From Dehalococcoidia bacterium (GTDB taxonomy: Bacteria; Chloroflexota; Dehalococcoidia; SZUA-161; SpSt-899): DNA of 64,000 bases. The notes beneath the pieces are model-generated. The model worked only from the letters and a program-made list of their open reading frames with translations, was not told where the DNA came from and made no database searches. The translations under genes and the position numbers were made by a program. Location: positions 201 through 64,200 of the forward strand of contig DAOTYO010000053.1 in NCBI GenBank assembly GCA_034434815.1, read 5' to 3'. Below are positions 6,956 through 24,984 of this stretch, piece by piece (the first letter of the stretch is position 1; every line of letters starts with the position of its first letter).

Positions 6956-6963
6956 ACTCCAAA

Positions 6964-7523
6964 TGAAAATGGAAGGATCGAATCCGAACGAAAGCGGGGG
7001 GGCAAACCCTGTATCCCCTATGAAGGCGGAATCTCCACAGGAGCGGTTGGAACGGGTGGAGGCGGCGCTGGGGTTGGTTCTAGAGCACATGAAGACCTCC
7101 ATCAAGGGCTCTGAGGTGCTCGAGGCGGAGCATACCCGCACCATCCTCTCTTCCATTGCCCTTGGCCTTTCCTCCGTTTCGCTCCTTGCCCTCTGGAGCA
7201 TTGCACTGGCCCGCGAGGATATTGAACTCAACCTCATGCGCTTCACCGTCGGTATGGCATTGCTTCTGCTCGCCGCTGTAACGGATCTGGCTTCCGCGCC
7301 GCTCTTGCGCCGGGCCGTCAACCGGGCCATCCTCGAGAAGGATCCCTCTCGATTGGTTCTCTCCCGTCATTCTTGGAGATCGTGGTTCGATCGTGATTTC
7401 TGGGTTCGGAGCAGACAGGAATCGCGTGATTTCTATCACCATCAACTGGCCCGCTTTGCCGCTCTGATCGTCTATATCGTAGCCGGTGTGTTCCTGATCT
7501 GGGCGGTGTTCACCCTCGAATAG
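6964..7523 (+). CDS. hypothetical membrane protein
   Basis: Several hydrophobic segments (ILSSIALGLSSVSLLALWSIALA; FAALIVYIVAGVFLIWAVF); start ambiguous (6909/6964/6970), 6964 chosen as it follows the candidate promoter. Confidence 0.5.
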
Positions 7524-7683: not shown

Positions 7684-8007
7684 ATGATGGTTTCGGCAAG
7701 CATCACCCTGAGCATTGTGGCCGTGATTGTCTCGTTCATTTTGAGCGTTCTGGGGGCCTTTCCGTTGAGCGATGGCACGACCGTTGGAGATGCCCTGCCG
7801 AACGCGGATGATTCGTCCAAGGTTCAGTCGGCGGCCGATGGCCTTTTGCTCGGCTACACCGATATCATCAACGATATCGCCTCTTTCCAGAAGGATCCGG
7901 ATCTGGCCCGGGCCGAAGCCCGCAAGGAAGCGATGTTCCGCTATGCCCGTGAGCTTCTCGGGCAGTATGAAGGGTTCAGCGGCACCCTCAGCGCAACGCT
8001 GAAGTAG
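7684..8007 (+). CDS. hypothetical small membrane-anchored protein (107 aa)
   Basis: N-terminal TM helix ITLSIVAVIVSFILSVLGAF; AAGAGG 5 nt upstream of ATG. Confidence 0.45.
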   Translation: MMVSASITLSIVAVIVSFILSVLGAFPLSDGTTVGDALPNADDSSKVQSAADGLLLGYTDIINDIASFQKDPDLARAEARKEAMFRYARELLGQYEGFSGTLSATLK

Positions 8008-8055: not shown

Positions 8056-9138
8056 CTATTGGTCCTCTATCTGCGTCAGGGGTTCGATATTCTCGAGGGG
8101 ATCTCCGCCCGCATCATTTTGAAGAGCATTCTCAAGCTCATCGGGGGTTTCCGGAGACTCCTCGGAATCGCTTTCGGGGGACTCCTCGGTCACCGGCCAC
8201 CAACCCCACCAACTGGGGGTTCCGCACTTGCTGCAGACCACGCGGCTGGCAACGAAGCCCTGTGAGCCGCACGAATCGCATCGGAAGGCTTTCTTGATCC
8301 CGTAGCCGAGCGTCATCTGAAGGTTCGATGAGATAACTTCCAATCGTTTGCCGATTTCCTCGGCCTCGCCGGCGGCCTTGCGCGAATTGGTAAGAGCGCG
8401 GCGCACGTCATCGGGGAGGGAGCGCACCGTATCGGCCATATCGGCGACGGCTTTCTCCAGCGCTTTGATCCGGCCGCGCGTTTCCTCGTCCGGTCCACCG
8501 GCCGCCGGGGCGTTCGCCGGAGCCCCGACCGACCCCTTGACCTCTTGAATCTGGGAACCCATCTCGTTGAGCCGGCTTTCGAGCCCGTCAATGGTGCTCC
8601 GCAGCGAGCCGAGGATATCCTTGAAATCCTGAGAAACGATCTCGGTGGCCTCCGCCACCTTGGCCACCTCGGTTTCGAGATGGGCGATCTTCTCGATGGC
8701 TGTCTCCGCCTGTGATAGGCGGCCGGTCAGGTTGCTGATGGCATCTTCGAGCGCGGTGAGCGCCTCCGCCTTGCTCTTGCGGGGCGGGGGCTCCGCCGTG
8801 TTTTCCGCCCGGGCCGGAGGTGGTTCGCTCTGCTCCGCTGTGGCCCGCGAAGGTATCGGCCCGGGGCTTCCGCGCCTCGGGAATCTGAACGGGAAGAACC
8901 GCCACAGGCCCCGTTTTCTTCGCACCGGGGCTGCGGCGGCCTTGGGTTCCCTCGAAGGAACGGCCGGATCGGTTTCATGATTCATAGAGGGCTCCTTACG
9001 CTCTTGCTTTGGCCGGGGCCCATGGAACGGCCAGAGCTTTCCCGCGAGCCTTCGCACGGTGGGGTTGGAGTCGTACACCACCAGCAAGAGCAGGATCATG
9101 ACAAAGAAGAGTGCTCCGGAAATCATTACGGTTTGCAT
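8056..9138 (-). CDS. coiled-coil protein with C-terminal zinc ribbon and WWGWWP motif, paralog 1 (N-terminal TM segment if the 9138 start is used)
   Basis: Pro-rich region, heptad-like coiled coil, then FRCDSCGSQGFVASRVVCSKCGTPSWWGWWP (C-x2-C-x13-C-x2-C-x4-WWGWWP) and an acidic tail; an internal Met at 8985 has an AAGGAG RBS and is an alternative start. Confidence 0.6.
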   Translation of the reverse strand: MQTVMISGALFFVMILLLLVVYDSNPTVRRLAGKLWPFHGPRPKQERKEPSMNHETDPAVPSREPKAAAAPVRRKRGLWRFFPFRFPRRGSPGPIPSRATAEQSEPPPARAENTAEPPPRKSKAEALTALEDAISNLTGRLSQAETAIEKIAHLETEVAKVAEATEIVSQDFKDILGSLRSTIDGLESRLNEMGSQIQEVKGSVGAPANAPAAGGPDEETRGRIKALEKAVADMADTVRSLPDDVRRALTNSRKAAGEAEEIGKRLEVISSNLQMTLGYGIKKAFRCDSCGSQGFVASRVVCSKCGTPSWWGWWPVTEESPESDSEESPETPDELENALQNDAGGDPLENIEPLTQIEDQ

Positions 9139-9193: not shown

Positions 9194-9679
9194 TCATGGT
9201 TCTATCAGTGCACCCTCCACTGCAAGTTCAAAGACGCGTGCCGGACGCTTGCAAAGCGGCATGATATCGAAGTTGATATAGCCCGCCGGTTCGAGCGTGA
9301 ATCCATCCGGAAACCGCGCGTCTTTCTCTTCCCAGAGAATATTGCCCTCCCGATCTTTCACCCGATAAATCAATGCCTCAAACGAAAGCCTTTTGGCCGA
9401 TGTGTTCCTCAGCCAGCCCTTGACCCATGCGATGGACCATGCCTCGCCGGTGGCCTGATCCCATCGCACCTCCAGTTCCGGAGGGCCATCGTATGCGAAT
9501 TCGTATTCCCCCACATTGGCCCCGGTGCCTTGGACAACGTCCATCGGGTCGGCCTGCGGGTGCGGACTGAGGAGATAGATCGCTCCCCCGACGGCCACTG
9601 CCAAAAGGCAGAGGCCGAAGGCCAGCGTCCTCCGTCTTTGCGCCCTCCGCTGTTTACGCTCCCCGATTGAATCGAACAT
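9194..9679 (-). CDS. hypothetical single-pass membrane protein
   Basis: 161 aa; basic N-terminus then TM helix LAFGLCLLAVAVGGAIYLL; sits between the two WWGWWP paralogs. Confidence 0.5.
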   Translation of the reverse strand: MFDSIGERKQRRAQRRRTLAFGLCLLAVAVGGAIYLLSPHPQADPMDVVQGTGANVGEYEFAYDGPPELEVRWDQATGEAWSIAWVKGWLRNTSAKRLSFEALIYRVKDREGNILWEEKDARFPDGFTLEPAGYINFDIMPLCKRPARVFELAVEGALIEP

Positions 9680-9762: not shown

Positions 9763-10566
9763 CTACCATCCGCCCGTTTCGTGTTCGGCCGTTTCCCACC
9801 CCGCATACTCATCGCCCCCATCGAACTCATCCATCTCTTCTTCCGTCTCTTCCGGGGGCCACCAACCCCACCAATCCTCATGCCCGCAGGCGCTGCATTT
9901 GACAAGGCTCACGACGTATCCGTGGGCCCCGCACTGCTGGCACTCGAACGTATTCTGAATGTTGTACCCCATGGTGGAGCCCAGTTTCCGAACGATGCTC
10001 TTGCTTTGAGAGGTCGTCTTCTGGACCTGCCCGGATAGGGCCTGTATCTGTGAAGAAAGGGCCTGAACGGCGCTGGTCACCTTCGCCAGTTGTTGTTGCA
10101 TCTGGGCGATCTTCTGCAGCGAAGGATCCTTCTTTGCCTCCTGTTGGATCTGGCAGATGGTGATGACCGAGCCTTCGAGGGCTTCCACCCGCTTGACGAG
10201 ATCGGCGTCGGGGCCCTTGGAAGGAGATGCGCTTTTGACGGATCTCTCGATGGACTCCATCCTTCCCGCCAGGCTTTCCAATCGCTCGACGCGTTTTGAA
10301 AGGGCGGCGATCGCCTCTTCGAGGGATTTCAGCTCTTCCGCTGGAACGGCCGCCAGCGATGGGGCGGGTGCGGTGCTCACGACCGGGGCGGGTTCCTCTC
10401 TGGCTTTGGGCGGAGGCGTGCTGACTTTCTCCGGCTTGGGGGCCGGCTTTGGCTCAGGGGGCGGTGGCGGGGGTGGGGGCGGAGCAGCCGCCTTCGGCTT
10501 CTCCTGAGGCACATGCCCCGCCAGAAGCGCATCGATTGCGGCCTGTGATAATGTCTCTTCCGCCAT
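9763..10566 (-). CDS. putative CheY-P-binding output protein: FliM-like N-terminal peptide + Pro-rich linker + coiled coil + zinc ribbon + WWGWWP + acidic tail, paralog 2
   Basis: N-terminus MAEETLSQAAIDALLAG matches the LSQxEIDALL CheY-binding peptide of FliM/FliY; PPPPPPPPPEPKPAPKP linker; C-terminal FECQQCGAHGYVVSLVKCSACGHEDWWGWWP with spacing identical to paralog 1; GGAGAAGG RBS. Confidence 0.7.
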   Translation of the reverse strand: MAEETLSQAAIDALLAGHVPQEKPKAAAPPPPPPPPPEPKPAPKPEKVSTPPPKAREEPAPVVSTAPAPSLAAVPAEELKSLEEAIAALSKRVERLESLAGRMESIERSVKSASPSKGPDADLVKRVEALEGSVITICQIQQEAKKDPSLQKIAQMQQQLAKVTSAVQALSSQIQALSGQVQKTTSQSKSIVRKLGSTMGYNIQNTFECQQCGAHGYVVSLVKCSACGHEDWWGWWPPEETEEEMDEFDGGDEYAGWETAEHETGGW

Positions 10567-10578
10567 AGGCCTTCTCCG

Positions 10579-11676
10579 CTAGAGATCCAGAATCTCCGTG
10601 ATCAGCTTGAACTGGTGCTCCGGTTTCGAAAGATCGATATCGTAAGGAGGATAGACCTCCTTCCCCTCGACGTCGTAGCAAACGCGCACCACCGGCCGAC
10701 CGATATGCCCGATGTTCGCGTTGGTGATGATCCCCGATTCCCGGGTGTTGAGCCGGACCATGACGCCGCTCGGGTAGACGGGCACGCGGCGCGCGAATAC
10801 CTGAACGAGCTCCGGATCGAACAACTCCCCCGCTGAGGCCATGATGCTCTCGAAGGCATCCATGGGACTGTAAGGTCTGTGCTTGGGCCGGTAGGATACG
10901 AGCTCGTAGTACGTTTCCGCCATGCCGATGATCTGCGCGATGGGGGAGATATCCCATCCCTTGGCGCCCGTGGGATAGCCGCTCCCATCCCATCGCTCGT
11001 GATGCTGAAGGATGGCTTGAACGACGGGCTTCGGGATCCGCTCGATCCGCGATAGCAATTCATACCCATATATCGGATGCTTTTCGAACTCCTTGCGATC
11101 CGCCTCCGAGAGGGAATCCTTTTCCTTCCAGACCTCCGGTCGGATCCAGATATAGCCGATGTTCTCGAGCATGGCCGCCCGGCTCACGTTGGCCAGTTCG
11201 TTCGCATCGAATCCGGCTTCCTTGGCCAGAAGAATGGCCAAGGCCGTGATCTGCACGGGCAAGAAGAATTCATAGTCCGCTATCGAGATGCATCCGGTGA
11301 GATCGGGTTCCCCCAAGGGAACTTGCAAAACGGCTTGCAGAATGGCATGTCCGAACCTCTCTACCTCGAGCCGTGCCGCGTAGATTTCCGCATCTCCCGG
11401 GTTCTTCTGATCGGGTTTGCGCTGAATGCTCAGGAGCTTGCGCATGGCCTCTGTGGCGTCTTTGTGAATTTCCGGCCGGACGAGCGGCTGAATGACGAGA
11501 TCGGAGACACGGCTGTCCTCGATGAAGAGTTCCCAGACCTCCTTCTCCCACAGGAACCCGATGTGTTTCTGCTGAAGCTCGACGTTGGCCGGCAGAAGCA
11601 TTTTCCCGTGCCGGTCGATGACCGGCTTGGCAAGCTCCATACCCACCTTCGCCTTCTCTACCGATACCCGTCGCAT
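10579..11676 (-). CDS. HD-GYP domain cyclic-di-GMP phosphodiesterase, copy 1
   Basis: 365 aa; HD motif region and HHERWDGSGYP signature; strong [12 protein letters not shown]. Confidence 0.85.
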   Translation of the reverse strand: MRRVSVEKAKVGMELAKPVIDRHGKMLLPANVELQQKHIGFLWEKEVWELFIEDSRVSDLVIQPLVRPEIHKDATEAMRKLLSIQRKPDQKNPGDAEIYAARLEVERFGHAILQAVLQVPLGEPDLTGCISIADYEFFLPVQITALAILLAKEAGFDANELANVSRAAMLENIGYIWIRPEVWKEKDSLSEADRKEFEKHPIYGYELLSRIERIPKPVVQAILQHHERWDGSGYPTGAKGWDISPIAQIIGMAETYYELVSYRPKHRPYSPMDAFESIMASAGELFDPELVQVFARRVPVYPSGVMVRLNTRESGIITNANIGHIGRPVVRVCYDVEGKEVYPPYDIDLSKPEHQFKLITEILDL

Positions 11677-11707
11677 GTCTTATCCCTCCCCCTTGCCTTG
11701 CCCCTCT

Positions 11708-12820
11708 TCACAAGTCCAATATCTCCTCGATCAACTTGAACTGATGTTCCGGCTCCGAGAGATCCATGTTGATGGGAGGATGCACTTCGTTCCCGAGCAC
11801 ATCGTAGCAAATACGGACCACCGGCCGGCCCACATGTCCGATGTTCACGTTGGTGATGATCCCGCGGTGTTTGGTGTTCAATCGCACCATCACCCCGCTG
11901 GGGTAGATGGGCACCCGCCGGGCGAAGATCTGCACCAACTCCGGATCGAACAGCTCCCCTGCCGAGGCCATGACTTTTTCGAAGGCATCCATGGGCGAAT
12001 ATGGCTTGCGATTCGGACGGGCGGATCTGGCCTCGTAATACGTCTCGGCGATGCCGATGATCTGGGCGATGGGGGAGATATCCCAGCCCTTGGTTCCGTT
12101 GGGGTAACCGCTCCCGTTCCACCGCTCATGATGCTGAAGCACAGCCTGAGCCACCACCGGCGGCATCCGATCCAATTTGGAAAGCGCCTCGTAGCCGTGG
12201 ATGGGATGCTTCTCGAATACCTTCTGATCCTCCGGCGAAAGCGAATCCTTGTTCTGCCAGATGTGAGGCGGAGTCCAGATATATCCGATGTTCTGGAACA
12301 TGGCCGCCCGCCCCACGTTGATCAGTTCGCTATTGGGGAAGCCGGCTTCCCGGGCCAGCAATATGGCCAGCGCCGTCATCTGTACCGGCAGAATGAACTC
12401 GAATTCCTCCACCGTAGCGCTGCCGGTCAGATCCGGTTCCCCGAGCGGAGATTTCAGAATGGATTGGACGATTGCATAGGTCAAGCGATCCACCTCGAGC
12501 CGGGCCCCGTACATCTCCGGGGCGGCAAGATCCTTCTTCTCGTTTGGGTCGCGCTTCATGGTGAGCAAGCGGCGCACCGCTTCGATGGAGTCCCTTTGCA
12601 CCTCCGGCTTGATGAGCGGCTTGATGACAAGGTCGGGAACGCGGGAGTCCTCGATGAGAAGCTCCCAGACCTCCTTCCCCTGAAGGAGCCGCAGATGGTC
12701 TTCCTTGAGCTCGATGCCGGCCGGCAGAATGGTGTGCCCGTACTTATCCATGGCCGGTCGGGCCAGCTCCAAACCGGGAGTGGCTTTTTCCACGGATACG
12801 CGACGCAAGGCCGATGTCAT
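11708..12820 (-). CDS. HD-GYP domain cyclic-di-GMP phosphodiesterase, copy 2 (tandem paralog)
   Basis: 370 aa; HHERWNGSGYP; alignable with copy 1 across its full length; possible TTG start giving MRRVSVEK as in copy 1. Confidence 0.85.
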   Translation of the reverse strand: MTSALRRVSVEKATPGLELARPAMDKYGHTILPAGIELKEDHLRLLQGKEVWELLIEDSRVPDLVIKPLIKPEVQRDSIEAVRRLLTMKRDPNEKKDLAAPEMYGARLEVDRLTYAIVQSILKSPLGEPDLTGSATVEEFEFILPVQMTALAILLAREAGFPNSELINVGRAAMFQNIGYIWTPPHIWQNKDSLSPEDQKVFEKHPIHGYEALSKLDRMPPVVAQAVLQHHERWNGSGYPNGTKGWDISPIAQIIGIAETYYEARSARPNRKPYSPMDAFEKVMASAGELFDPELVQIFARRVPIYPSGVMVRLNTKHRGIITNVNIGHVGRPVVRICYDVLGNEVHPPINMDLSEPEHQFKLIEEILDL

Positions 12821-12839: not shown

Positions 12840-13658
12840 TCACGCGCTTCGGGCCGGAGGGCGCGGTTTGGGCGCGGTGAAGAATCTCCGATAGAACGAT
12901 GGCTCGATGAGCTCGAAGCCTATCTGTGTGCATTCGAAGATGATCTCGCTCCCTCCGATGAAGAGAATCCCGCCCTCCCGAAGGGCGTTTCGGAAGCCCT
13001 GATTGATTTGCCTCTTGGCGGCATCGGTGAAATAGATCACCACGTTCCGGCACAGGATCAAATCCAGATCTTTCTCGAAAGGATCGCTGAGAAGGTTGTG
13101 CCGCGAGAACTCCACCATTTCCCGAATCTTATCGTTGATCCAATATTTCTCCCCGGTCTTTCGGAAGTACTTCGTCAACCGATCCGGCCTCACCGCCCGC
13201 ACGTCCTGAGCGGTGTACGGGCCGCCGGCGATGGCCCGTTCCAGAATGCTTTCATCCAGATCGGTGGCCTTGATGGTGTGCCGCTTTCCGGGACTGATCT
13301 CGTCCAGAATGATGGCGATGGAATACGGCTCGGCACCGTTGGAGCACCCGGCGCTCCAGATCCGGAGCCGCGGTCTCTCCTTGAGGAGATCCGGGAGATA
13401 GCGCTTTTCGAGCTTATCGAATTGATGGGCGTCGCGGAAGAACTCCGATACGTTGATGGTCAGGAAGTCCTTCAGCTCCTGAAGCATCTCCCGATCCCGC
13501 TCGAGTTGCTGGAAATAGGCGGCGATGCTCGGCGCCTTGGCCCGCTCCAGATAAGAAGAGAGCCGGCGCCGCATCTGCTTTTCCTTGTAGCTATCAAGGT
13601 CGATGTTCGTGAGCTCCAGAACCTTGCGTTTAACGAATCCATATTCCAAATCGTCCAT
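12840..13658 (-). CDS. cheR: chemotaxis protein methyltransferase CheR
   Basis: Start set at MDDLEYGF (internal Met, preceded by GGAG); SAM-dependent MTase motifs (RIWSAGCSNGAEPYS; LILCRNVVIYF); upstream ORF extension overlaps cheB. Confidence 0.9.
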   Translation of the reverse strand: MDDLEYGFVKRKVLELTNIDLDSYKEKQMRRRLSSYLERAKAPSIAAYFQQLERDREMLQELKDFLTINVSEFFRDAHQFDKLEKRYLPDLLKERPRLRIWSAGCSNGAEPYSIAIILDEISPGKRHTIKATDLDESILERAIAGGPYTAQDVRAVRPDRLTKYFRKTGEKYWINDKIREMVEFSRHNLLSDPFEKDLDLILCRNVVIYFTDAAKRQINQGFRNALREGGILFIGGSEIIFECTQIGFELIEPSFYRRFFTAPKPRPPARSA

Positions 13659-13660
13659 AT

Positions 13661-14752
13661 CTAAGCTCCTGTACCCACGCTCTGGAACACCTCGCAGCGC
13701 CGGACGATCTCCGCCGGGATATCCGAGAGGGGCACGATGGCATCGGCATGGCCGGCCTCGACGATGCTCTTGGGCATCCCGTAGACCACACAGGAGGCCT
13801 CGTCTTGAACGATGACCTCCCCCCCCGCCTTCTTGATCAGGGCCGATCCCCGGGTGCCGTCGCTTCCCATGCCGGTGAGCACCACCGCGAGAACCGAAGA
13901 GCCGAAAGCCCCGGCTGCCGATTCCATGGTGACATTGGCGGCGGGGCGCAGGCCGCATTCCTGCGGCCCTTGGTTCAGAGCGATCCGACCTTCGCTATCA
14001 ACGGTCATGTGCTTGCCGCCCGGGGCGAACAAGACCATCCCCGCGCGGATCACGTCGCCTTCCTCCGCTTCCTTCACGGAAAGCTCTGAGGCCTCATCCA
14101 GTCTGGCCGCAAGGGACTTGGTGAATCCGGCGGGCATATGTTGCACGGCGAGGATTGGGGCGGGGAGGTTACCCGGCAACCGGGGGAGAACCTCCGCCAG
14201 AGCGCGGGGCCCGCCGGTGGAAGATGCGAACACGATCACTCGGTTCGGTGTGCTCCATCCGTTCGTATTCTTGTGAAGTGCTTTCTTGCGGCCCTTCTGG
14301 GCGCTCTTTTCATTCGGTCGTGGAGACGGCCGCAGGCGCGATTTCTCGATGCCGGCGGCCATCTTGATCTTGTGGATGAGTTCTTCCGAGGACTCCGCAG
14401 AGCCGACGGGGCTGACCACCGAAGGTTTGCAGAAGAAGTCCACCGCCCCCAGTTGAAGGGCTTGAACGGTGATCTCCGCCCCCTCCCGGGTGAGCGCGCT
14501 CAGCATCACGATGGGAGTGGGGCATTGCTCCATGATCTTGGCCACGGCCTCCATCCCGTCCATGCGGGGCATGGTGACGTCCATCGTGATGACCGTTGGT
14601 TGCAGGCTTCGAGCCATATCGAGGGCTTCGATGCCGTCTCGTGCCTGACCCACCACCTCGATCTCCGGATCGGTGCTGATCCGCTTGGAAATGGCAAATC
14701 GCGCGAACGCGGAATCATCCACCACTAGGACGCGAATTCTCTTGTTCACTGA
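13661..14752 (-). CDS. cheB: chemotaxis response regulator protein-glutamate methylesterase CheB (REC + methylesterase)
   Basis: GTG start (VNKRIRVLVVDDSAFARF) with AAGGAG 7 nt upstream; receiver domain plus C-terminal esterase domain (GASTGGPRAL ... GMGSDG). Confidence 0.9.
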   Translation of the reverse strand, partial: SVNKRIRVLVVDDSAFARFAISKRISTDPEIEVVGQARDGIEALDMARSLQPTVITMDVTMPRMDGMEAVAKIMEQCPTPIVMLSALTREGAEITVQALQLGAVDFFCKPSVVSPVGSAESSEELIHKIKMAAGIEKSRLRPSPRPNEKSAQKGRKKALHKNTNGWSTPNRVIVFASSTGGPRALAEVLPRLPGNLPAPILAVQHMPAGFTKSLAARLDEASELSVKEAEEGDVIRAGMVLFAPGGKHMTVDSEGRIALNQGPQECGLRPAANVTMESAAGAFGSSVLAVVLTGMGSDGTRGSALIKKAGGEVIVQDEASCVVYGMPKSIVEAGHADAIVPLSDIPAEIVRRCEVFQSVGTGA

Positions 14753-14849
14753 TAACTCCTTATCCGCTTCGGGAGCAAAAAGCACAGGCCCTTGCGGTCC
14801 CCGGAGCGCGTCTCCGATTGTTTGCGGTCGGCCTGTGAATCGCCTCGCT

Positions 14850-15209
14850 TCACTTACCGACCAGCTTTTGCACGGCGGCAAGAACCCGGTTCGGATCGAA
14901 CGGCTTGACCACGAAGTCCTTTGCCCCCGCTTTGATCGCTTCCATCACGATGGATTGCTGGCCCATCGCGGTGACCATGGCGACTTTCGCGTTCGAATCG
15001 ATCTTCATGAGCTGGCGCAGCGCTTCGAGCCCGTCCATATCCGGCATGGTGATATCGAGCATCACGGCGTCCGGCCGCTCCTTTTTGTACTTGTTCACTG
15101 CCTCTACGCCGTTCTCGGCCTCGATGCACTCATAACCGTTCTGGGTGAGGAGCTTGACCGCCCTCATCCGCATGAATTGGGCATCGTCCACTACCAATAC
15201 TTTCGGCAT
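14850..15209 (-). CDS. cheY: chemotaxis response regulator CheY
   Basis: 119-aa single receiver domain, MPKVLVVDDAQFMR..., conserved D13/D57 (LDITMPDMDG) and K109 (KPF). Confidence 0.9.
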   Translation of the reverse strand: MPKVLVVDDAQFMRMRAVKLLTQNGYECIEAENGVEAVNKYKKERPDAVMLDITMPDMDGLEALRQLMKIDSNAKVAMVTAMGQQSIVMEAIKAGAKDFVVKPFDPNRVLAAVQKLVGK

Positions 15210-15251
15210 AGCTTTTCCCCTCCTTCGATCTCGTCCTCGATAGGTGCTCTT

Positions 15252-15764
15252 CTATAGCTCTTTGGTGATGCCTCCGACGATCCTCACCACCACTTTTCCC
15301 GTGGCAATGTAGAGGCGCACGGTACGCCCGCGGTTCCCGCCGATGTCCTCGGCATCGATTCGGAGCGCCTCGTCCGCCAAGACTTTCTTGACCGCCTCGA
15401 TGTTCCGGGCACCCGTATCGAACCCTTTGGCAGAGGCGCCCGGCGAGAACATCTGGGCCCCGCCGGCGATTTTGACGATGAGCCGGGATCTCACGGCTCC
15501 TTGCTCGCGCATGCGTTGCAAGAGCTCGGGGATGGCCACATCGGCGTACTTGGTGGCGTTTTCTTTGGATTGTGTTCCGTTGGTGCTGAACGGAAGCACG
15601 ATGTGTGCCACACCTCCGACGCATGTTCCCGGATCGTACATGCAGAGCGCAATGCACGAGCCCACGCCCAGACAGGAAATGGTTACTTCGGGGTCTCTGG
15701 ATATCTTGATTTCCCCGAGATTGGCCACGAGCGATTTTTCGAGCGCCAATGTTTCTAGTGCCAT
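15252..15764 (-). CDS. cheD: chemoreceptor glutamine deamidase CheD
   Basis: 170 aa; GVGSCIALCMYD Cys motif and VAHIVLP His typical of CheD. Confidence 0.85.
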   Translation of the reverse strand: MALETLALEKSLVANLGEIKISRDPEVTISCLGVGSCIALCMYDPGTCVGGVAHIVLPFSTNGTQSKENATKYADVAIPELLQRMREQGAVRSRLIVKIAGGAQMFSPGASAKGFDTGARNIEAVKKVLADEALRIDAEDIGGNRGRTVRLYIATGKVVVRIVGGITKEL

Positions 15765-16408
15765 TTCACCCTCGCATATTGCCGATTCTGTTCGATCATC
15801 ACGTCCATGAATTCTTCCGTCGGAAGGACCAGTAAGGTTCCGGTGATCTCGCGGTCGTCCGATGAGAAAACGGTCTCCATGGCGAAGAGCTCATCACGGT
15901 GGGCCATGATCCCCGCGAGGGCGGAATCGAGCACGGCCCCGGCCATATCCACGATCACCGCCGGCGGCGATGGCATGAGCCTGAGCCCGGTGTTATCGGC
16001 CACGGAATTGAGAAAGAATGATCCGGTGATATTGCCCATTTCCCCGAGCACCGAGGCTTCAAGTTCGCCGAGCTCGGTGGTGGTGCCCTGTGGTTGATGG
16101 AGCATCATGTCCACCAATCCGAACGCGACGCGAATGGGATAGGCCAGCATGATGTGCCCGCTGGCCGCGCCGTTCATGGCCAGATAAATGACGACCACTT
16201 CGTTCTCGGGCCCTCCCACAAGATCGGCGGCGTTTTGAACCGGGATGATCTTCATTCCCAGCGCGGTGATCCGTATCTTGGTTCCGACCATTTCGGAGAG
16301 GCCCACAACGGCGTTCTGGGTTCCCATCCCCACCAATTCAGTCCAACGTGAGAGTTCGACATTCCGTATCCCCGGATTGTTGTTGTTCGGATGAGCTTGC
16401 TCCAACAT
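15755..16408 (-). CDS. cheC: CheY-P phosphatase CheC (CheC/CheX family)
   Basis: Start at MLEQAH with AAGGAGG 5 nt upstream; paired CheC-like half-domains (LSEMVG... and ELGNITGSF...); overlaps cheD by 10 nt. Confidence 0.8.
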   Translation of the reverse strand: MLEQAHPNNNNPGIRNVELSRWTELVGMGTQNAVVGLSEMVGTKIRITALGMKIIPVQNAADLVGGPENEVVVIYLAMNGAASGHIMLAYPIRVAFGLVDMMLHQPQGTTTELGELEASVLGEMGNITGSFFLNSVADNTGLRLMPSPPAVIVDMAGAVLDSALAGIMAHRDELFAMETVFSSDDREITGTLLVLPTEEFMDVMIEQNRQYARVKWH

Positions 16409-16482
16409 TGTCCTCCTTGTCTCTATGTTGGTTCGATACGGCTCCCTCCCGGCTGGCCAGTTCCGGTTGGTAGCCGATGGAT

Positions 16483-18615
16483 TCACTCTCCCATGACCAC
16501 CAGTTTTACCAGACTGGGCACATCGATGATGAGGGCAACCTCGCCCGTTCCCAGGATGCTTGCCCCGGCGATCCCCCGCACATCTCCGATGAACGTGCCG
16601 AGCGATTTCACCACCACTTCCTGAGGCTCTCTGAAGGAATCGATGGTCAACCCCACCATGCGTTCGCCCGCTTTGACCACCACCACGTTGATCATGCCGT
16701 TCGAGGGGGTATCCGCATTCCGAAGGCGAAGCACCTGATCGAGTTTGAGGAGGGGCACCACGCGGTCTCGGATGCGGATCACCTCTTTGCGGGTGACCGT
16801 CTGAATTTCCTCCGGCCTCAGACGGAGGACTTCACAGACGGATACCAGCGGAATGGCGAAAGTCACGCCGGCGGAGACGACCAGAAGTCCGTGGATCGTC
16901 GCCAGAGTGAGCGGCAATCGGAGGACGAATTTCGTCCCCTGCCCGATCTTCGTGCTCACGGCGATGTGCCCGTTGAGCGATTCGATATTCTGCCGGACGA
17001 TGTCCATGCCCACGCCGCGCCCGGAGACATCGGTGATCTTTTCCGCCGTGGAGAGGCCGGGCTCGAAGATGAGATCAATGGCTTCGGTATCGTCCATGCG
17101 TGCCGCCGTCTCGGCGGTGATGATGCCTTTCTTGACGGCTACCTCTTTGAGCTTGGCGCCGTCGATGCCTTTGCCGTCGTCTTCCACGGTAATGGCGATG
17201 TAGCTTTGCTCGTGCGCGGCGGCCAGCCGGATGGTCCCTTTCTCCGGTTTGCCGGCGGCCCGGCGTTTCTCCGGAAGTTCGATGCCGTGGTCCACCGCGT
17301 TCCTCAGAAGATGCACGAGCGGATCGCGGATGTGTTCGATCACCGAACGGTCGATTCCGGTCTCTTGCCCTTCCACGATGAATTCGATTTGTTTGCCCGC
17401 TTTCTGTGCCAGATCCCGGACCATTCGGGGGAAACGGTTGAAGACCGTTCCCACCGGCATCATCCGGGCCTCGGTGATATCGAGCTGAAGGTCATCGATG
17501 ATCTTGGAGACGTTCGTGATCGTTCGGGTGAGGCTCAGCACGTCCTGATCATCCCGGTAGCGGGCGGAAAGAATACTGCCGGTGCGGGTGAAGGCGGTTC
17601 GGGCCACCACCAGTTCCCCGATTTGATTCATGAGGTTATCGAGCCGGCGGACGTCAATCCGCACCGTCTCGGAAACCTTGACCCCCTCTTGGGAGGTGCA
17701 CGTTTTCTCCCCCGGTGGCGGGCCGCCCTCCGGCTTTTGCTGAGCGGATTGGATGATCTCTTCGGCGGCGGCAGCGGCCTCCGCTTCGGGTTCGGGGGGT
17801 GGGGGTGTCTCGGGAGGGGGAGAACCGCTGGGATCGTAGGCCTCCACGCGGATGCCGCCGATATCGGGAATGGCGGCGATGGCCTCATGGATTTCCCGTT
17901 CGGATAGCAAGCCGGCGAAGATGACGTTCAGAACGCTGCTGTTTTTCTCGGCCTCGATCTCCTTCTGAGTGGGCACGGAGGCGATGACCGTCCCCTTTTC
18001 CTTTAGATCATTCAGCACTTGGAAAAAACGGACGGATGTCCATTCGCATCCCTTCTGCGTTTCCACGGTGATTTGAAAGGCGCGGTTGCCCAGAGCCAGC
18101 GCTTGGCGAAGCTTGGTGAGGGCTTCATCCGTCAGGGGCACGCTGTTCTTCCGGGCCTTCTGCTTCTCGGCGTTCTTTCTCTTGGGGCCCGGTTTTGATG
18201 CCCGTGACGGTTGCTGCTGACCGGAGGCCAGCTCTTCCAGAGTAGCGATTACGGAAGTGACGTCGATCTCGGTCTCTGTATCGGCGGTGAGGTTATCCCG
18301 CAGGATTCTCAAATGATCCAGCGCGCTCAGAAGGGCATCGGCGATCGGTGTGGTCACGCGCAGGGTCCCATGGCGCAGCTTATCGAGGATGTTCTCCATG
18401 GCATGGGTGAGCTCCGCCATCATCTCGTAGCCGAGCATGGCCGAAGACCCTTTGATCGTATGAGCGGCGCGGAAGATCTCTTGGAGCAGTTCCGGGTTAT
18501 CCCCCTCGTTCTCCAGTTTGATCACATCCTCATCGAGGAGCTGCAACTGCTCATCGGTATCCTGAAGGAATACCTGAAGCTCTTCCGGCGTGATATCTGA
18601 AGCAAGCTTTACCAT
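16483..18615 (-). CDS. cheA: chemotaxis histidine kinase CheA
   Basis: 710 aa; N-terminal Hpt (P1) domain with FRAAHTIKGSS phospho-His motif, HATPase_c core (GRGVGMD), C-terminal CheW-like domain. Confidence 0.9.
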   Translation of the reverse strand: MVKLASDITPEELQVFLQDTDEQLQLLDEDVIKLENEGDNPELLQEIFRAAHTIKGSSAMLGYEMMAELTHAMENILDKLRHGTLRVTTPIADALLSALDHLRILRDNLTADTETEIDVTSVIATLEELASGQQQPSRASKPGPKRKNAEKQKARKNSVPLTDEALTKLRQALALGNRAFQITVETQKGCEWTSVRFFQVLNDLKEKGTVIASVPTQKEIEAEKNSSVLNVIFAGLLSEREIHEAIAAIPDIGGIRVEAYDPSGSPPPETPPPPEPEAEAAAAAEEIIQSAQQKPEGGPPPGEKTCTSQEGVKVSETVRIDVRRLDNLMNQIGELVVARTAFTRTGSILSARYRDDQDVLSLTRTITNVSKIIDDLQLDITEARMMPVGTVFNRFPRMVRDLAQKAGKQIEFIVEGQETGIDRSVIEHIRDPLVHLLRNAVDHGIELPEKRRAAGKPEKGTIRLAAAHEQSYIAITVEDDGKGIDGAKLKEVAVKKGIITAETAARMDDTEAIDLIFEPGLSTAEKITDVSGRGVGMDIVRQNIESLNGHIAVSTKIGQGTKFVLRLPLTLATIHGLLVVSAGVTFAIPLVSVCEVLRLRPEEIQTVTRKEVIRIRDRVVPLLKLDQVLRLRNADTPSNGMINVVVVKAGERMVGLTIDSFREPQEVVVKSLGTFIGDVRGIAGASILGTGEVALIIDVPSLVKLVVMGE

Positions 18616-18721
18616 GGCCGTTCTCCAGCTTTATCCGAAGCTCGTTGATATTCATCCCGTCCCCATCCCCGGAGGCCTCCTCATGGGAGGTTCTCCACAC
18701 CCCTGTGTTCTGCATCAGAGC

Positions 18722-19324
18722 TTACGGGGCGACCGCTTCTTTGGTCCGTGCGGTCTTCCCGCCTTTGGCCGTTTTGGCCCCCTTGGCTGCACTGGATTGG
18801 GGGGTTCCCTCCTCGGCTTCCGCCCCCGTTGGCGGTGTCTCCTCGGCCTGGGCGGCGTTGAACTCCGCCAGTTGGGAAGCCTGCCGCTGCGTGAGCAACT
18901 TATCCAAATCCAGAAGGATGATCATCTTATCCTTGAGTTTGGCGATGCCGAGAAGGTAATCGGCATCGGCGGAAGCGATGACGGAGGAAGGCGGCTCGAT
19001 CGTTTCCGAAGGGATGGTCAATACTTGGGTGACTTCATCCACCTGTACGCCGATCGGCTGGCCCCCGATATCCACCACCACGATCCGGGTTTCCTTGGTG
19101 ATTTCCCCTTCGGCAAGGGAGAAGAGCTTTCTCAAGTGGATCACCGGGATTACCCGGCCCCGCAGGTTGATCACCCCCTCCACGTAGGGTGGAGTGCGGG
19201 GAACACGTGTGATCTCCTGCATGCGCTCGATGCCGCTGACTTTGGCGATATCTACCCCGTAGGACTCTCCGGCCAGGGTGAAGACGACCAGTTGTTGTTC
19301 TGAACGGGATCCCGTAAAGCTCAC
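18722..19324 (-). CDS. cheW: chemotaxis coupling protein CheW with Lys/Ala-rich C-terminal tail
   Basis: 200 aa; CheW fold signature (QLVVFTLAGESYGVDIAKV...VINLRGRVIPV). Confidence 0.85.
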   Translation of the reverse strand: MSFTGSRSEQQLVVFTLAGESYGVDIAKVSGIERMQEITRVPRTPPYVEGVINLRGRVIPVIHLRKLFSLAEGEITKETRIVVVDIGGQPIGVQVDEVTQVLTIPSETIEPPSSVIASADADYLLGIAKLKDKMIILLDLDKLLTQRQASQLAEFNAAQAEETPPTGAEAEEGTPQSSAAKGAKTAKGGKTARTKEAVAP

Positions 19325-19400
19325 CGAAACACCTCCAAAAATCTATTTCTCGATCACGCCCATACTGCAGGGCTCAAGGTTCTCCCATAAAGTTGGTTGC

Positions 19401-21734
19401 CTACCGGGAGGCAAGTGCCGCTTCCTTCGAGAGCCTCTCCTGTTCGAGTTTGAAAGCGGATATCGCCTCCTGAAGCATCGTTGCCATATCCTTCAAGGTC
19501 TGGGTGGAGACGATGATCTCGTCCACCTGAGCGCCCATCTCTTCGGCGGCCGCCGAAACCTGTTCGGTCGCGGCGCTGTTCTCTTCGGCGACACCGGCCA
19601 CACTTTCGATGGATTTGCCCACCTCCTCGCTGGTGGAGGCCATTTGCTGGGCGGCGGCGGTGTTCATCTCGGTGATGCTGCCCACACCGTCAATGATGGA
19701 TACGAGCTCATTGGTGGAAGCGCTGATCTGTTCGGCGCCGGCCGAGATCTGTTCGATCTGATTGCTGACGGCGGCGGTGGCCTTGAGGATATCTTCGAGC
19801 GCATCGCCGGCTTCACTGGCGAGGCGATAGCCATCCTTCACTTCCTGAGCCCCTTCTTGCATCGCCTTCACCGCCTCGGCAACGCCCTTCTGAATGTTCC
19901 GGATGAGATCGGCGATCTCCTTGGTGGCGGAGGCCGTCCGCTCCGCGAGTTTGCGCACTTCATCCGAAACGACGGCGAATCCTCGACCGTGCTCGCCCGC
20001 GCGGGCCGCCTCGATGGCGGCGTTCAGGGCCAAGAGATTCGTCTGCGCGGCGATATCGTCAATCACGGCCACGATCTTGCCGATCTCTTCGGATTGGGTT
20101 CCCAGCCGGGTAACCTTGGCGGAGGCATCGTCCACAGTGGCGGTGATGCGCTCCATGCCTTCGACGGTCTGGCGGGCCTTGTCCGCACCCTTCCCGGCCG
20201 CTTCTGCGGCCGTCTTGGAACCTTCGGCGGCGGCGTTGGCGCTCTTGGCCATGGCTTCCATGGAAGTGGAAATCTCGCTGATGGCGGACGAGGCCTTCCC
20301 GACGCCTTCGGCCTGATCACGTGAGCCCTGCGCCACTTGCTCGATGATCTGGGCCAGTTGCTGCATGATCTGGGCGGATTGCTGCGCGGTGGCGGCCTGA
20401 TCCCCTGCGCCCTTGGCCATCTCCTGAGCGGTGGAGGCGACTTGCTGGGTCGCTTGACCCGCCTGTTTGGCCGCCACGGCCAGTTGTTCGCTGGCGCGGG
20501 CCAGTTGGTTCGCACTTTCCTTGACCTTGCCCACGACCATGATCAGATTCTCGGTCATCTGGGCGAAGGCCCTCAGGAGATGATCTTCTTCCGACCGCGG
20601 CTGGACGCGAACGGTGAGATCGCCTTCCGCAATCCGAATGGCGATGGCCGTGACCGCATTGAGGGAGTCGATCAGCACATTGAGATTGTTGCGAATCTCG
20701 TTGAAATCGCCTTTGTATTCGGTGGTGATCTTCTCGGGGATGTCACCTTTGGAAATTCGATTGATATAAGCTGCGGCGGCTCTCAGCGGATTGATGACCG
20801 CGTCCAATGTATCGTTAAAGCCCTGGATCACCTTCTGATAGTCGCCCCGGTGCTTAGCGGCATCGGCGCGAACATCGAGCCTTCCTTCCGTGGCCGCCTC
20901 CGCCAGCATTCGCGCATCGGTGACCAGAGCACCGACCGCTTCGATGCAGCCGTTGAGGCCGTCGCGGATCTTGTTGAAATCGCCGTTGTAGTCCTCGGTG
21001 ATCTTGGCCGGGATCTCGCCGCTCGCGATCTTGCCGATGTATTCGATCGCCCGATTGATTGCGCCCACGAAGATATCGATCAGGGCGTTGATGCTTCGGA
21101 CGATCGTCTGATAGTTGCCCTCGAACTTGGCGATATCGGCGCGGGCGGTCAATTGGCCCGCCGCCGCCGCCTCCATGAGCTCCTGAATGCTATCGGCGAT
21201 CTGGGTTTCCTTGCTGATGTCCACGATGTATTCCAGTGCGCCGATGATGTTCCCCTCGGCATCTTTGAGCGGTGTGGCCGTGTACCGGATGCTCATCGGT
21301 CCGGAGGGAAGGCTGGCCTCGGTATCGCCGGTGAAGACCCCGTCTTCGCTCATCGCTTGGGCACACCGGCATTCCTTGGATTGGCAATGATAGGTCTGGA
21401 ACAGTTCATAGCACTTGTGCCCCACGATCTCGCTCGTGGCCTTGCCCAGCATCTTGGCCGTTTTGCGGTTGACGTAAGTGATGGTGAAATCCGTATCAAT
21501 GGCGACTACCGGCGTGGGCAGGGCATCGAGGTACATCCCTTTCTGTTTGGCTTCGCCGAGTTCAGCCCTGAGGGATTCGAGCTCCTTCTTGCATTTGGTT
21601 GCTCCCCCCTCGGTTGATTTTGGTGCCTTCGCCGGAGGCGCCTCAGCCGGCATGGCTTCGACATCCGTGATCTGTGGAGACGATAGTTTCTTCTTCGCTG
21701 GCATTGCTTCCTCCTTTGCCGTTTCTCCCACCAT
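19401..21734 (-). CDS. soluble methyl-accepting chemotaxis protein with N-terminal Cys-rich PAS domain and HAMP-like repeats
   Basis: 777 aa; no TM helix; PAS-like region containing [21 protein letters not shown]; repeated GDIPxKITxxYxGDFN HAMP-like units; C-terminal MCP signalling domain ([35 protein letters not shown]). Confidence 0.9.
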
Positions 21735-22165: not shown

Positions 22166-23272
22166 ATGGCGAAGGGCAAAGGAAAAACCACGGAGATCGA
22201 ATTTGCGGCCTCCGATTCGATCGGTGAGGCGGTATCCCCGGCGGTTGAAGGTGAAGCTCAGTCCGATGCGATCGTCTGGACGGATACGCGCAGACGGATT
22301 CTCGATTGCAATCGGGCCGCGGAGCGCATCTGGGGCTCGATCGCCGGGAGCCTGAGGGGGCGGGACATCGGATTCCTTTTTGAAGGAGAAGTCCCGCAGA
22401 CCGGTCAGAGCCACTGCCGGGTGAAGGCGGCGGATGGGGGGAGTGTGGAGGGTTCCGTTGCCGTATCGGTGGTGCGGGATGGGCGTCGGAATCCCACCGG
22501 GTTCGTGTTCCGTTTTCATCCGGACGACGTGTCACCGGCGGTGGATGAGGGGTGGAATGAAGCCCTCGATGGGCTCGTGCGGGAGGAGAAACTCGCGGTG
22601 ATGGCGGAGGTCACTTCGAAGATCGCTCACGATGTGAGCAGCCCTCTTACCGCGATCTCTGGATACGCGCAGGTGATCATGGAAAGCGTGGGCGATGCGG
22701 AGATCAAGGAGGGATTGGGGATTATTCAGAAGGAAGCCAAACGGGTCTATACCATAATTCAAGATATTTCCTCCCACATTCGTGAACGCCGCGCTGAGAG
22801 AAAGGAACGGGTCTCTTTGAACACGTGCATCGAGTCGGTGTTGAAGCTCCATCGCCGGCGATTGGAAGGGAAGGGAATTCGTGTGATCACGGAACTAGAC
22901 CCCGATCTCCCGGAAGTAATAGCGGATGCCCGGCAGATGCAGATCGTGCTTTCGAATCTCATCCGCAATGCCGGGGAGGCGATGGCGGGGTGCGGGGGGG
23001 AGGGAAGACTCACCATCCGGAGCGGCGCATGCGATGGGCATGTGGTCATATCGGTGGCGGATAGCGGGCCCGGGATCGGGGAGGCGGTCATGGAAAGGCT
23101 CTTCGAGCCGTTTTCCGATGCGAAGGAAGGCGGTGGAGGGCTTGGTATGGGGTTGGCCGTCTGCCGGCGGATCATCCGCAGCCATGGCGGGCGCATCTCT
23201 GCGGAGAACTCCAACGGTGCCGGGGCGGTCGTAACGATCGAGTTGACCGCGCTCGCGGCCGATGAGGATTGA
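22166..23272 (+). CDS. sensor histidine kinase (PAS-like N-terminus, HisKA, HATPase_c)
   Basis: 368 aa; H-box KIAHDVSSPLTAISGYAQ; N, G1, G2 boxes (LIRNAGEAM; DSGPGIG; GGGLGMGLAV). Confidence 0.85.
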   Translation: MAKGKGKTTEIEFAASDSIGEAVSPAVEGEAQSDAIVWTDTRRRILDCNRAAERIWGSIAGSLRGRDIGFLFEGEVPQTGQSHCRVKAADGGSVEGSVAVSVVRDGRRNPTGFVFRFHPDDVSPAVDEGWNEALDGLVREEKLAVMAEVTSKIAHDVSSPLTAISGYAQVIMESVGDAEIKEGLGIIQKEAKRVYTIIQDISSHIRERRAERKERVSLNTCIESVLKLHRRRLEGKGIRVITELDPDLPEVIADARQMQIVLSNLIRNAGEAMAGCGGEGRLTIRSGACDGHVVISVADSGPGIGEAVMERLFEPFSDAKEGGGGLGMGLAVCRRIIRSHGGRISAENSNGAGAVVTIELTALAADED

Positions 23273-23340
23273 ATCTCCGGACTGCGAGTGCCGGCCGTTT
23301 ATCGGAAGAAGTCGAGAAACGAACGAGGGAGAAGCAAGAA

Positions 23341-23751
23341 ATGGGCACATCGGATCGGCAACCGACGGTGTTGGTGGTGGACGATGAGCAATCCGTGCGC
23401 GATGTGATCTACCGGTATCTGAGCAAACGGGGATACGATGTGTTGACTACCCGCAATGGGCGGGAAGCATTGCTCCTCGGCGCTCACGGCAACTTCGATG
23501 TCATTCTCCTCGATATCCACATGCCCGGGATGAACGGCCTCGAGGTTCTGCATCAGCTCAAGCAGAAGTATCCCGAGTGCGTGGTGATCATGCTGACCGG
23601 TGTGGCGGATCCGGAATCGTCCATCGAATCGGCAGCGATGGGGATGGGGGCGGCGATATTCTTGAAGAAACCGTGCCCGCTCGCCGAGGTGGAACGGGCC
23701 ATCGAAGAAGCGTTGGGGCGGGGTCGGAGCTGCGCGGGGGAAGCCAACTAG
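23341..23751 (+). CDS. single-domain response regulator (receiver)
   Basis: Start at MGTSDRQPTVLVVDDEQ with GAGGGAG upstream; conserved Asp (LLDIHMPGMNG) and Lys (KKP). Confidence 0.85.
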   Translation: MGTSDRQPTVLVVDDEQSVRDVIYRYLSKRGYDVLTTRNGREALLLGAHGNFDVILLDIHMPGMNGLEVLHQLKQKYPECVVIMLTGVADPESSIESAAMGMGAAIFLKKPCPLAEVERAIEEALGRGRSCAGEAN

Positions 23752-23805
23752 TCACGCGCGCTCTTGCGATCTTGGGGGGAGCGGCTCCCGGATCACAGAA
23801 AGTGG

Positions 23806-23850
23806 AAGGGGGGCGCCGTCATTTAAATGACGGCGCCCCCCTTTGTTTGC
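23806..23850. terminator. rho-independent terminator (bidirectional) between convergent genes
   Basis: Perfect 17-bp inverted repeat GGGGGGCGCCGTCATTT/AAATGACGGCGCCCCCC followed by TTTGTTTG; located between 23751(+) and 23910(-) gene ends. Confidence 0.7.
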
Positions 23851-23909
23851 TCGAGGGGAAGCTCGGTGAGGTTGTCGGGAGACGACCGTGGGGGATGAAG
23901 GGCACTGAT

Positions 23910-24602: not shown

Positions 24603-24654
24603 CCCCTACTTTTACCCGAAATCGGTGGTAAAGGTCAAGACGTCTCACCGAGCC

Positions 24655-24864: not shown

Positions 24865-24984
24865 GAGACCGATTCGGTCTTCTTTGCATGGGTTCCTTTA
24901 TTCCAGCATTCAGAATCGGGCTTTGAGTTTATTCCAATATCCCTTGCTGAACCGGCGAGAAGAGCATCCGGGAGGGTCGGTCCG

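Follow-up and report, generated by a model that had tools for sequence, protein, structure and literature searches.

Functional archaella have been shown in Chloroflexota (Sivabalasarma et al., Nat Microbiol 2025, PMC12488501). The chemotaxis adaptor CheF is absent in this phylum, "another protein component" is expected, and positioning is raised as a second open question (PMC12488501). A 2026 preprint (10.64898/2026.05.11.724246) also reports CheF as absent and names no replacement; an adaptor, zinc and FliM are not mentioned in it. Here, we describe a stretch of 64,000 nucleotides from a Dehalococcoidia bacterium (GCA_034434815.1, contig DAOTYO010000053.1, positions 201 to 64,200), which we call the window. 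It encodes two paralogous proteins that share a C-terminal Cys4 ribbon with the motif WWGWWP. One is soluble and starts with a FliM-type peptide, and the other, encoded at 8056-9138, has an N-terminal transmembrane (TM) helix and is called the anchored paralog below. The soluble form is the most likely, and a strong, candidate for the adaptor that replaces CheF, because it combines a bacterial docking peptide for phosphorylated CheY (CheY-P), a lineage-specific scaffold and a position between che and arl (archaellum) genes, in a phylum where CheF is reported absent. The finding is thus a candidate for a non-homologous CheY-to-motor adaptor with an unprecedented membrane-anchored partner. The genes of the pair are as follows.

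8056-9138, minus strand: gene of the membrane-anchored WWGWWP zinc-ribbon paralog, an open reading frame of 360 amino acids with an ATG start
9763-10566, minus strand: soluble paralog, 267 amino acids, with FliM-type peptide, Pro-rich linker, coiled coil, ribbon and acidic tail
10522-10551, minus strand: LSQAAIDALL, the FliM-type N-terminal peptide of the soluble paralog (profile match to FliM residues 2-17)
9856-9981, minus strand: ribbon with WWGWWP of the soluble paralog

Comparison with flagellar and archaeal systems

The soluble paralog and most members of its family start with an LSQxEIDALL-type peptide at the same position as FliM. However, neither paralog has the FliM middle domain or the FliN domain (no FliM/FliN match, PF02154/TIGR01397, at E <= 0.1). 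In the anchored paralog, a TM helix stands in place of the peptide, and the associated motor is the archaellum rather than the flagellum. The role proposed here is that of CheF, which in archaea connects CheY-P with the archaellum switch ArlCDE: a dedicated carrier of the CheY-P signal to the archaellum. The family is likewise encoded with che and arl genes. Neither paralog matches CheF in Pfam or NCBIfam, though, and there is no sequence or fold similarity. Unlike CheF, the family has a FliM-type recognition element and a zinc ribbon module, and the CheF system has no membrane-anchored paralog.

ArlC, ArlD and ArlE, which make up the archaellum switch of euryarchaea, are also cytoplasmic, partly coiled-coil motor proteins that receive the chemotaxis signal. 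However, the FlaC model PF05377 reaches 23.0 bits against a cutoff of 27.8 and covers residues 176-204 only (29 residues of coiled coil), and Arch_fla_DE has no match. The arlCDE slot of neighbouring archaellum operons is filled by a different unannotated protein (cluster 12). ZitP of Caulobacter regulates pili, motility and polar organisation; it combines a membrane anchor with a zinc finger and is linked to a type IV filament machine. Its finger is N-terminal, however, and the Foldseek match is non-significant (E 4.3, probability 0.09), so that ZitP serves as an analogy only. The anchored paralog has no described counterpart in the flagellar or archaeal systems.

A paralog pair with different N-termini

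The anchored protein is a true paralog of the soluble protein, with a similarity far beyond chance. BLASTP of the whole proteins gives E = 7e-21 with 28% identity over 162 amino acids. An earlier note on this DNA had claimed that the C-terminal modules align residue by residue. The strings it quoted, FRCDSCGSQGFVASRVVCSKCGTPSWWGWWP and FECQQCGAHGYVVSLVKCSACGHEDWWGWWP, are exact and align without gaps, 18 of their 31 residues being identical, and the similarity reaches into the last coiled-coil segments. The note had also proposed that a membrane anchor replaces the CheY-binding-type peptide in 8056-9138, and this holds: the protein has a TM helix and no N-terminal LSQxxIDxL. Its wording that there is no LSQ motif is true of the N-terminus but not of the whole protein, where the tripeptide occurs at residues 141-143 (GRLSQAETAIEKI). 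This LSQ is not the N-terminal CheY-binding peptide, since it is part of the first long helix and the I-D of LSQxxIDxL is missing.

Among 163 family proteins, 94 carry an L-S/T-Q-x-x-I-D-A-L/M peptide at the N-terminus, starting at residue 5-10, and 24 carry a TM helix; the rest are mostly fragments or near-misses. The consensus of the peptide is (D/N)-K-V-L-S-Q-A-E-I-D-A-L-L. A 22-column profile of it was compared with 177,635 distinct PDB sequences, and the sole match at E < 0.1 was Salmonella FliM residues 2-17 (GDSILSQAEIDALLNG, E = 1.6e-4). This stretch of FliM is the docking site of CheY-P. This match strengthens the view of the earlier note that the soluble paralog is a CheY-docking form. 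The CheY of the neighbouring chemotaxis operon (14850-15209) has T. maritima CheY as its nearest match (1TMY/4IGA, E 2e-40) and keeps the aromatic-V-V-K-P-F strand. The anchored paralog departs from the majority architecture and shares the TM architecture of the 24. The soluble peptide-bearing form is considered ancestral and is the commonest form of the family.

The C-terminal ends vary as well. Ordinary soluble forms end about three residues past WWGWWP, usually with Lys or Arg. In the clade with two paralogs, both proteins have long acidic tails (median net charge -11 for the anchored forms), which we regard as a co-evolved trait of the pair. The short, basic, Trp-rich end of the ordinary soluble forms may contact the membrane or the motor directly, and in the two-paralog clade membrane attachment may have been handed to the anchored copy. 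The soluble-paralog tails of the window's clade (9763-9855, minus strand, in the window) are acidic with terminal aromatic residues (…GWETAEHETGGW, …EWEGNW, …DDWDEWE). They recall the NWETF-type C-terminal tether of some chemoreceptors and, by this analogy, may be short linear docking motifs.

The WWGWWP ribbon family

The C-terminal module of the family follows the pattern L-x-x-T-x-G-Y-x-x-x-x-x-F-x-C-x-x-C-G ... C-x-x-C ... W-W-G-W-W-P. P0001, a protein identical to the 8056-9138 product and called on four public contigs, belongs to the family with 114 bits (E 2.1e-28) against its profile. The four cysteines and the G-W of WWGWWP are invariant across 88 sequences. In the anchored paralog, the cysteines form a zinc-ribbon pattern, C287-x2-C290-x11-C302-x2-C305, with flanking beta-hairpins. 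AlphaFold2 modelled the ribbon poorly in the full-length protein with 20 sequences (predicted local distance difference test score, pLDDT, 33-55). A model of the last 87 structured residues with the 88-sequence alignment was instead confident, with a mean pLDDT of 88 and 94-95 in the ribbon. It consists of a long helix, a short helix (GIKKAF) and the Cys4 ribbon, with strands at 62-67 and 74-79. Because PSWWGW pairs with VASRVV in the final hairpin, WWGWWP is modelled as the last strand of the ribbon and not as a free tail.

The Cys4 ribbon is a generic predicted zinc ribbon, and its fold has no significant structural neighbour. Neither paralog exceeds any Pfam or NCBIfam cutoff, and apart from the N-terminal peptide the family has no match in the PDB. 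The only matches were to sub-threshold coiled-coil models, and those to DUF7310, FlaC_arch, Baculo_PEP_C and others in Pfam, all under cutoff, were set aside as coiled-coil composition. The string "WWGWWP" occurs in no paper found by literature search. A profile of the 59-residue C-terminal module retrieved 489 proteins at E <= 1e-3 from 1.84 billion representatives. When one genome from each of 185,579 species was scanned, 39 loci emerged, 38 of them in Dehalococcoidia/Chloroflexota metagenome-assembled genomes; the 39th is a weak 12-residue match in Polyangia, which is noise. Judged from these searches, the family is specific to Dehalococcoidia and is defined by the C-terminal helix, the Cys4 ribbon and the final WWGWWP strand. 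One 2.2-Mb Dehalococcoidia contig, CBDFLI010000002.1 (loci L047 and L021), encodes two soluble members about 420 kb apart. One adjoins the archaellum operon; the other lies near genes for a methyl-accepting chemotaxis protein (MCP) and CheW and ends with the variant WWGWWS.

Linkage to chemotaxis and archaellum genes

The open reading frames of related loci were clustered and their presence was checked by tblastn, giving 43 distinct loci with a family gene. Of the 43, 33 have chemotaxis genes, 18 have genes of the archaellum (arlB, F, G, H, I, J) no farther than 10 kb away, and 13 have both. The archaellum assignments are supported by profiles for archaellin (PF01917, E 9e-27), ArlH/FlaH (267 bits), FlaI (629 bits) and ArlJ (418 bits), and more weakly for ArlF and ArlG. 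In many genomes (L029, L034-L037, L042, L043, L045, L048), the soluble family gene lies directly between CheR/HD-GYP genes and the archaellin gene. The family is therefore linked to both che and arl genes, as expected of a CheY-to-archaellum adaptor. Because it is encoded between che and archaellum operons in Dehalococcoidia, the question at stake is the coupling of CheY to the archaellum and not a generic membrane scaffold.

The anchored paralog is present in nine loci, namely the window, L004, L007, L008, L011, L012, L013, L020 and probably L027, where the contig ends. It is limited to one subclade, with at least three sequence types. In L020, which has the anchored form, ArlI-ArlJ genes lie directly upstream of the che operon. 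The assembly GCA_028711995.1 contains both an anchored form, P0013, and an ArlH-ArlI-ArlJ cluster. A contig with ArlI-ArlJ genes from the same ENA sample as the window contig is close to the window in guanine-plus-cytosine content (0.596 and 0.598, respectively) and in tetranucleotide composition (r = 0.984). The corresponding r is 0.989 between the two halves of the window and 0.846 for the best unrelated locus. The window's organism thus probably has archaellum genes, as judged from sample co-occurrence and sequence composition.

Two further conserved genes were noticed in the archaellum operons. The gene at the arlC/D/E position of Dehalococcoidia operons (L035:14047-14964; cluster 12, 13 loci) encodes a protein of about 240-345 amino acids with a conserved N-terminal coiled coil and a C-terminal domain, which has no Pfam or PDB sequence match. 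In L050 and L054, the two anchored-paralog-clade genomes examined for the gene that follows arlJ, a conserved 122-amino-acid gene without a family match stands directly after arlJ (L050:11604-11972, L054:11630-11998).

The membrane-anchored paralog

About 20 full-length orthologs of the anchored paralog are available, with 33-66% identity. From the N- to the C-terminus, the protein consists of a TM helix, a disordered linker rich in proline and basic residues, two long helices, the Cys4 ribbon ending in WWGWWP, and an acidic tail. The coiled coil, Pro-rich region and acidic tail that the earlier note had read from the sequence are all present, at the positions listed here.

9070-9123, minus strand: N-terminal transmembrane signal-anchor, residues 6-23 (hydropathy, AlphaFold2 helix, conservation, codon changes)
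8983-8997, minus strand: internal in-frame ATG (Met52, 8983-8985) and AAGGAG (8992-8997), with a 6-nucleotide spacer
8791-9024, minus strand: disordered Pro-rich linker, residues 39-116 (AlphaFold2 pLDDT <50, and alignment)
8311-8772, minus strand: two long coiled-coil-like helices, residues 123-204 and 218-276 (AlphaFold2 pLDDT 73-84)
8194-8310, minus strand: C-terminal module, residues 277-315, with the TLGYGIKKAF helix, the Cys4 ribbon C287/C290/C302/C305 and WWGWWP as the last beta-strand
8059-8193, minus strand: long acidic C-terminal tail, residues 316-360 (TM forms: median tail 44 amino acids, net charge -11)

The N-terminal sequence is MQTVMISGALFFVMILLLLVVYDSNPTVRR. The hydrophobic helix of the earlier note is real: ISGALFFVMILLLLVVY has a maximum 17-residue Kyte-Doolittle mean of 2.98, and residues 2-24 are modelled as a helix with pLDDT of about 90 (AlphaFold2, 20-sequence alignment). 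It has the marks of a signal-anchor: a single hydrophobic helix at the N-terminus, in the range of about 18-23 residues, with a basic flank on its C-terminal side and without a cleavage site. Because basic residues (RR..K) occur only after the helix, the positive-inside rule predicts a type III topology, that is, a single-pass inner-membrane protein with the N-terminus outside and the C-terminus inside. By the same rule, the coiled coil and the cysteine ribbon would be in the cytoplasm. The helical region has its own motifs, DxKDILGSLRxSIDGLExRL and SLPxxV, with R180, D184 and P242 invariant in the 20-protein alignment. Within the otherwise unconserved linker, a basic-aromatic segment, KRGLWRFFPFRFPRRG (residues 75-91; 8866-8916, minus strand), has the counterparts GVLKWYAWYLGKLFRRG and GILAWYGSYFSRIFRRG in orthologs. 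This segment may be an amphipathic helix on the membrane surface.

The earlier note regarded the true N-terminus as uncertain because of an internal Met with an AAGGAG ribosome-binding site. Both are present as it described, with the ATG at 8983-8985 and the 6-nucleotide spacer. If translation began only there, the hydrophobic N-terminus would be untranslated and the protein soluble; in a weaker version of this idea, the gene is a decaying pseudogene. The Shine-Dalgarno sequence of Met52 is strong and well spaced, and 11 of the 20 aligned proteins have Met in this column. However, the start codon and its Shine-Dalgarno sequence are present in the window, L007 and L012 and missing in L008, L011 and L004, and in most anchored-paralog loci a G-rich stretch resembling a Shine-Dalgarno sequence lies ahead of the first ATG. 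Few parts of the protein are as well conserved as the TM helix, which is kept in orthologs down to 33% identity. A9, L10, L17 and V21 are invariant among 20 orthologs, and a VVYDSNPT motif is nearly so. In the first 30 codons, the window differs from L007 by 14 synonymous and 4 amino-acid-changing differences, and from L008 by 14 and 8. Such a synonymous excess is the mark of selection on the peptide.

The conserved TM helix, the mostly synonymous codon changes and the lack of the internal start in L008, L011 and L004 show that the start at 9138 and the full-length protein are real. The doubt about the start is thereby settled in favour of 9138, although the internal ribosome-binding site itself stands. 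The two circumstances in which the earlier note would have given up its proposal, a pseudogene and an untranslated hydrophobic N-terminus, were not found: the open reading frame is intact in every ortholog, and both readings are rejected from TM conservation, the Shine-Dalgarno pattern and the synonymous excess. A soluble protein made from Met52 (8985) alone is accordingly very improbable. An extra soluble isoform from Met52 is possible in some lineages.

Neighbouring genes of the pair

The pair stands at the end of a run of genes on a single strand, in the order MCP, CheW, CheA, CheC, CheD, CheY, CheB, CheR, two HD-GYP proteins, soluble paralog, 161-amino-acid protein and anchored paralog. 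Two further conserved membrane proteins, which the earlier note did not include, are encoded on the opposite strand. A scan for promoters and terminators yielded nothing above shuffled expectation.

12840-21734, minus strand: chemotaxis operon with MCP, CheW, CheA, CheC, CheD, CheY (14850-15209), CheB and CheR (Pfam matches)
10579-12820, minus strand: two tandem HD-GYP-domain proteins, 10579-11676 and 11708-12820 (PF13487, E 2.5e-32 and 3.2e-33)
9194-9679, minus strand: 161-amino-acid single-pass membrane protein, with its basic N-terminus in the cytoplasm, one TM helix and then some 120 amino acids of extracytoplasmic domain
7687-8007, plus strand: convergent co-conserved membrane protein of about 106 amino acids (cluster 18), in 8 TM-paralog loci
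6963-7523, plus strand: co-conserved polytopic membrane protein of about 186 amino acids (cluster 19), in 6 TM-paralog loci

Wherever the anchored paralog occurs, two or three further small membrane proteins are encoded with it. The 161-amino-acid protein, which the earlier note had placed between the paralogs, is kept there in 7 related loci; 8 loci have it either there or just ahead of the TM paralog. The two paralogs and this protein are conserved as a module, in the same order in the window, L007, L008, L011, L012 and L013. That the paralogs also assemble physically, or that CheY-P recruits a scaffold to the membrane, as the earlier note suggested, is conjecture. More fully, the constant order in the window's clade is soluble paralog, a protein of 161-173 amino acids, anchored paralog, and convergent proteins of about 110 and 190-200 amino acids. 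L004 has the TM paralog without an adjacent soluble paralog. None of the three membrane proteins of the window has a family match: the 161-amino-acid protein has none in Pfam or NCBIfam and only 3 database matches in a homolog search, the protein of 7687-8007 has none, and that of 6963-7523 has none in Pfam or NCBIfam. The idea that they are divergent forms of the ArlF/ArlG stators, of archaellins or of the arlCDE-slot protein was rejected at hhalign probabilities <= 1.5%.

The HD-GYP pair lies directly upstream of the soluble paralog, and an HD-GYP gene is present in 34 of the 43 family loci, usually immediately upstream. Both proteins of the window have lost the HD dyad, with "MLENIGY" and "MFQNIGY" where PmGH (4MCW) has "MHDIGK", and keep HHERWDGSGYP (HHExxDGxGYP). 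Their role is probably that of a sensor or scaffold, not of a phosphodiesterase. In P0147 (211 amino acids), the N-terminal 150 or so amino acids of the HD-GYP neighbour, up to the start of the HD domain, are joined directly to a WWGWWP-type ribbon. P0147 may be a natural fusion of neighbouring genes, or else it arose by a deletion or by misassembly.

Proposed coupling of CheY to the archaellum and alternative readings

In the mechanism that we favour, CheA would phosphorylate CheY, as is standard and as the operon suggests, and CheY-P would bind the N-terminal peptide of the soluble paralog, as the FliM match indicates. The ribbon module, the only part that is near-absolutely conserved in both paralogs, would then dock to a fixed partner. 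Candidates are ArlH, ArlI or ArlJ, the arlCDE-slot protein, the other paralog and the HD-GYP proteins. The anchored paralog and its membrane partners would fix the assembly at the membrane near ArlJ/ArlI and pair with the soluble copy via the coiled coil and/or the ribbon; this step is suggested by the paralogy, the co-conservation and the shared tail trait. Occupancy by CheY-P would finally change the effect of the pair on the motor. CheY-P binding, any contact of the paralogs with each other or with the motor, and the direction in which the motor is affected are all to be read as predictions. The family gene would have been duplicated in the window's subclade, with one copy exchanging the CheY peptide for a membrane anchor.

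We put the explanation as a whole, a soluble replacement of CheF with an anchored docking partner, at a probability of roughly 0.5. Its descriptive part is held with high confidence. That the WWGWWP family is a Che-to-archaellum coupling device is fairly probable, while the role of the anchored paralog as a membrane-fixed partner or docking subunit of the switch is proposed tentatively. A longer scenario is more speculative still. In it, Dehalococcoidia received the archaellum, but not CheF, from archaea and made a switch of their own out of the FliM-type peptide and a new coiled-coil/WWGWWP scaffold. Duplication in one subclade then gave a membrane-anchored docking ring for the soluble CheY-P receptor, consisting of the anchored paralog and the proteins of 161, about 106 and about 186 amino acids, with the TM paralog perhaps also made as a soluble Met52 isoform. 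The locus provides a concrete and testable candidate family for the missing CheF replacement in Chloroflexota archaella, and suggests how the replacement evolved, by putting a CheY-docking peptide of flagellar type to new use on another scaffold. One lineage went further, with a membrane-anchored version and dedicated membrane partners. The peptides, domains and gene sets are defined for binding assays, structure prediction and cryo-tomography.

Several points weigh against this explanation. The 64-kb window itself contains no archaellum genes or other motility machine, and the sample and composition data above are the sole link of its organism to an archaellum. Archaellum genes lie within 10 kb in only 18 of the 43 loci, the others being on short contigs or having their clusters elsewhere. 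No family member was seen in Anaerolineae, for example in Litorilinea aerophila, and therefore the family cannot be a universal adaptor of Chloroflexota. The link of the anchored paralog to chemotaxis comes from paralogy and gene order only, since it lacks the CheY peptide, and all protein-protein contacts proposed here are predictions. The degenerate HD-GYP proteins next door could also be the real partners of the family.

This last point leads to a reading in which the family acts together with the degenerate HD-GYP proteins, perhaps as a CheY-P-controlled scaffold for cyclic-dinucleotide sensing, and the archaellum neighbourhood is secondary. The frequent immediate adjacency of the two genes, the lost HD dyad beside the kept HHExxDGxGYP, which suggests a sensor and not an enzyme, and the joining of the HD-GYP N-terminal region to the ribbon in P0147 would all be accommodated. 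Nevertheless, family genes adjoin arl genes without an HD-GYP gene in L020 and L022, P0147 may be an artefact between adjacent genes, and nothing connects the ribbon with nucleotide binding; we regard this reading as quite unlikely. It is also unlikely that the anchored paralog is a decoy or negative regulator, which competes for the docking site or sequesters the soluble adaptor and so sets the gain or the basal state. The same highly conserved C-terminal module without the N-terminal peptide is what a competitor would have, and its restriction to a subclade implies that it is not essential to the basic system. But the conserved membrane proteins always found alongside fit a structural complex better than a simple competitor, and the coiled-coil region has conserved motifs of its own. 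A module that positions chemosensory arrays or the archaellum as a membrane or polar landmark, by analogy with ZitP and outside the CheY-P switching step, has a low probability as well. An anchor, a long coiled coil and a zinc finger in one protein, the extracytoplasmic domain of the 161-amino-acid neighbour and the appearance of ZitP among the non-significant Foldseek matches (E 4.3) speak for such a landmark, as does the place of positioning among the questions raised in PMC12488501. Against it, no landmark protein, ZitP included, shows significant similarity, and the CheY-binding-type peptide of the partner paralog points to signalling rather than placement.

Other features of the window

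The remainder of the window contains a second small sensory cluster, followed by genes for fatty-acid/coenzyme A metabolism and housekeeping. The cluster lies beside the che operon at 22166-25818. Its genes are those of a histidine kinase (22166-23272), two receiver proteins (23269-23751 and 24985-25818) and, between these two, a CheB-type methylesterase domain that lacks a receiver (23910-24602). In the otherwise metabolic region, the open reading frame at 55112-56485 (minus strand) has a weak match to an IS200-like transposase (Y1_Tnp, E 3e-5) at its C-terminal end.

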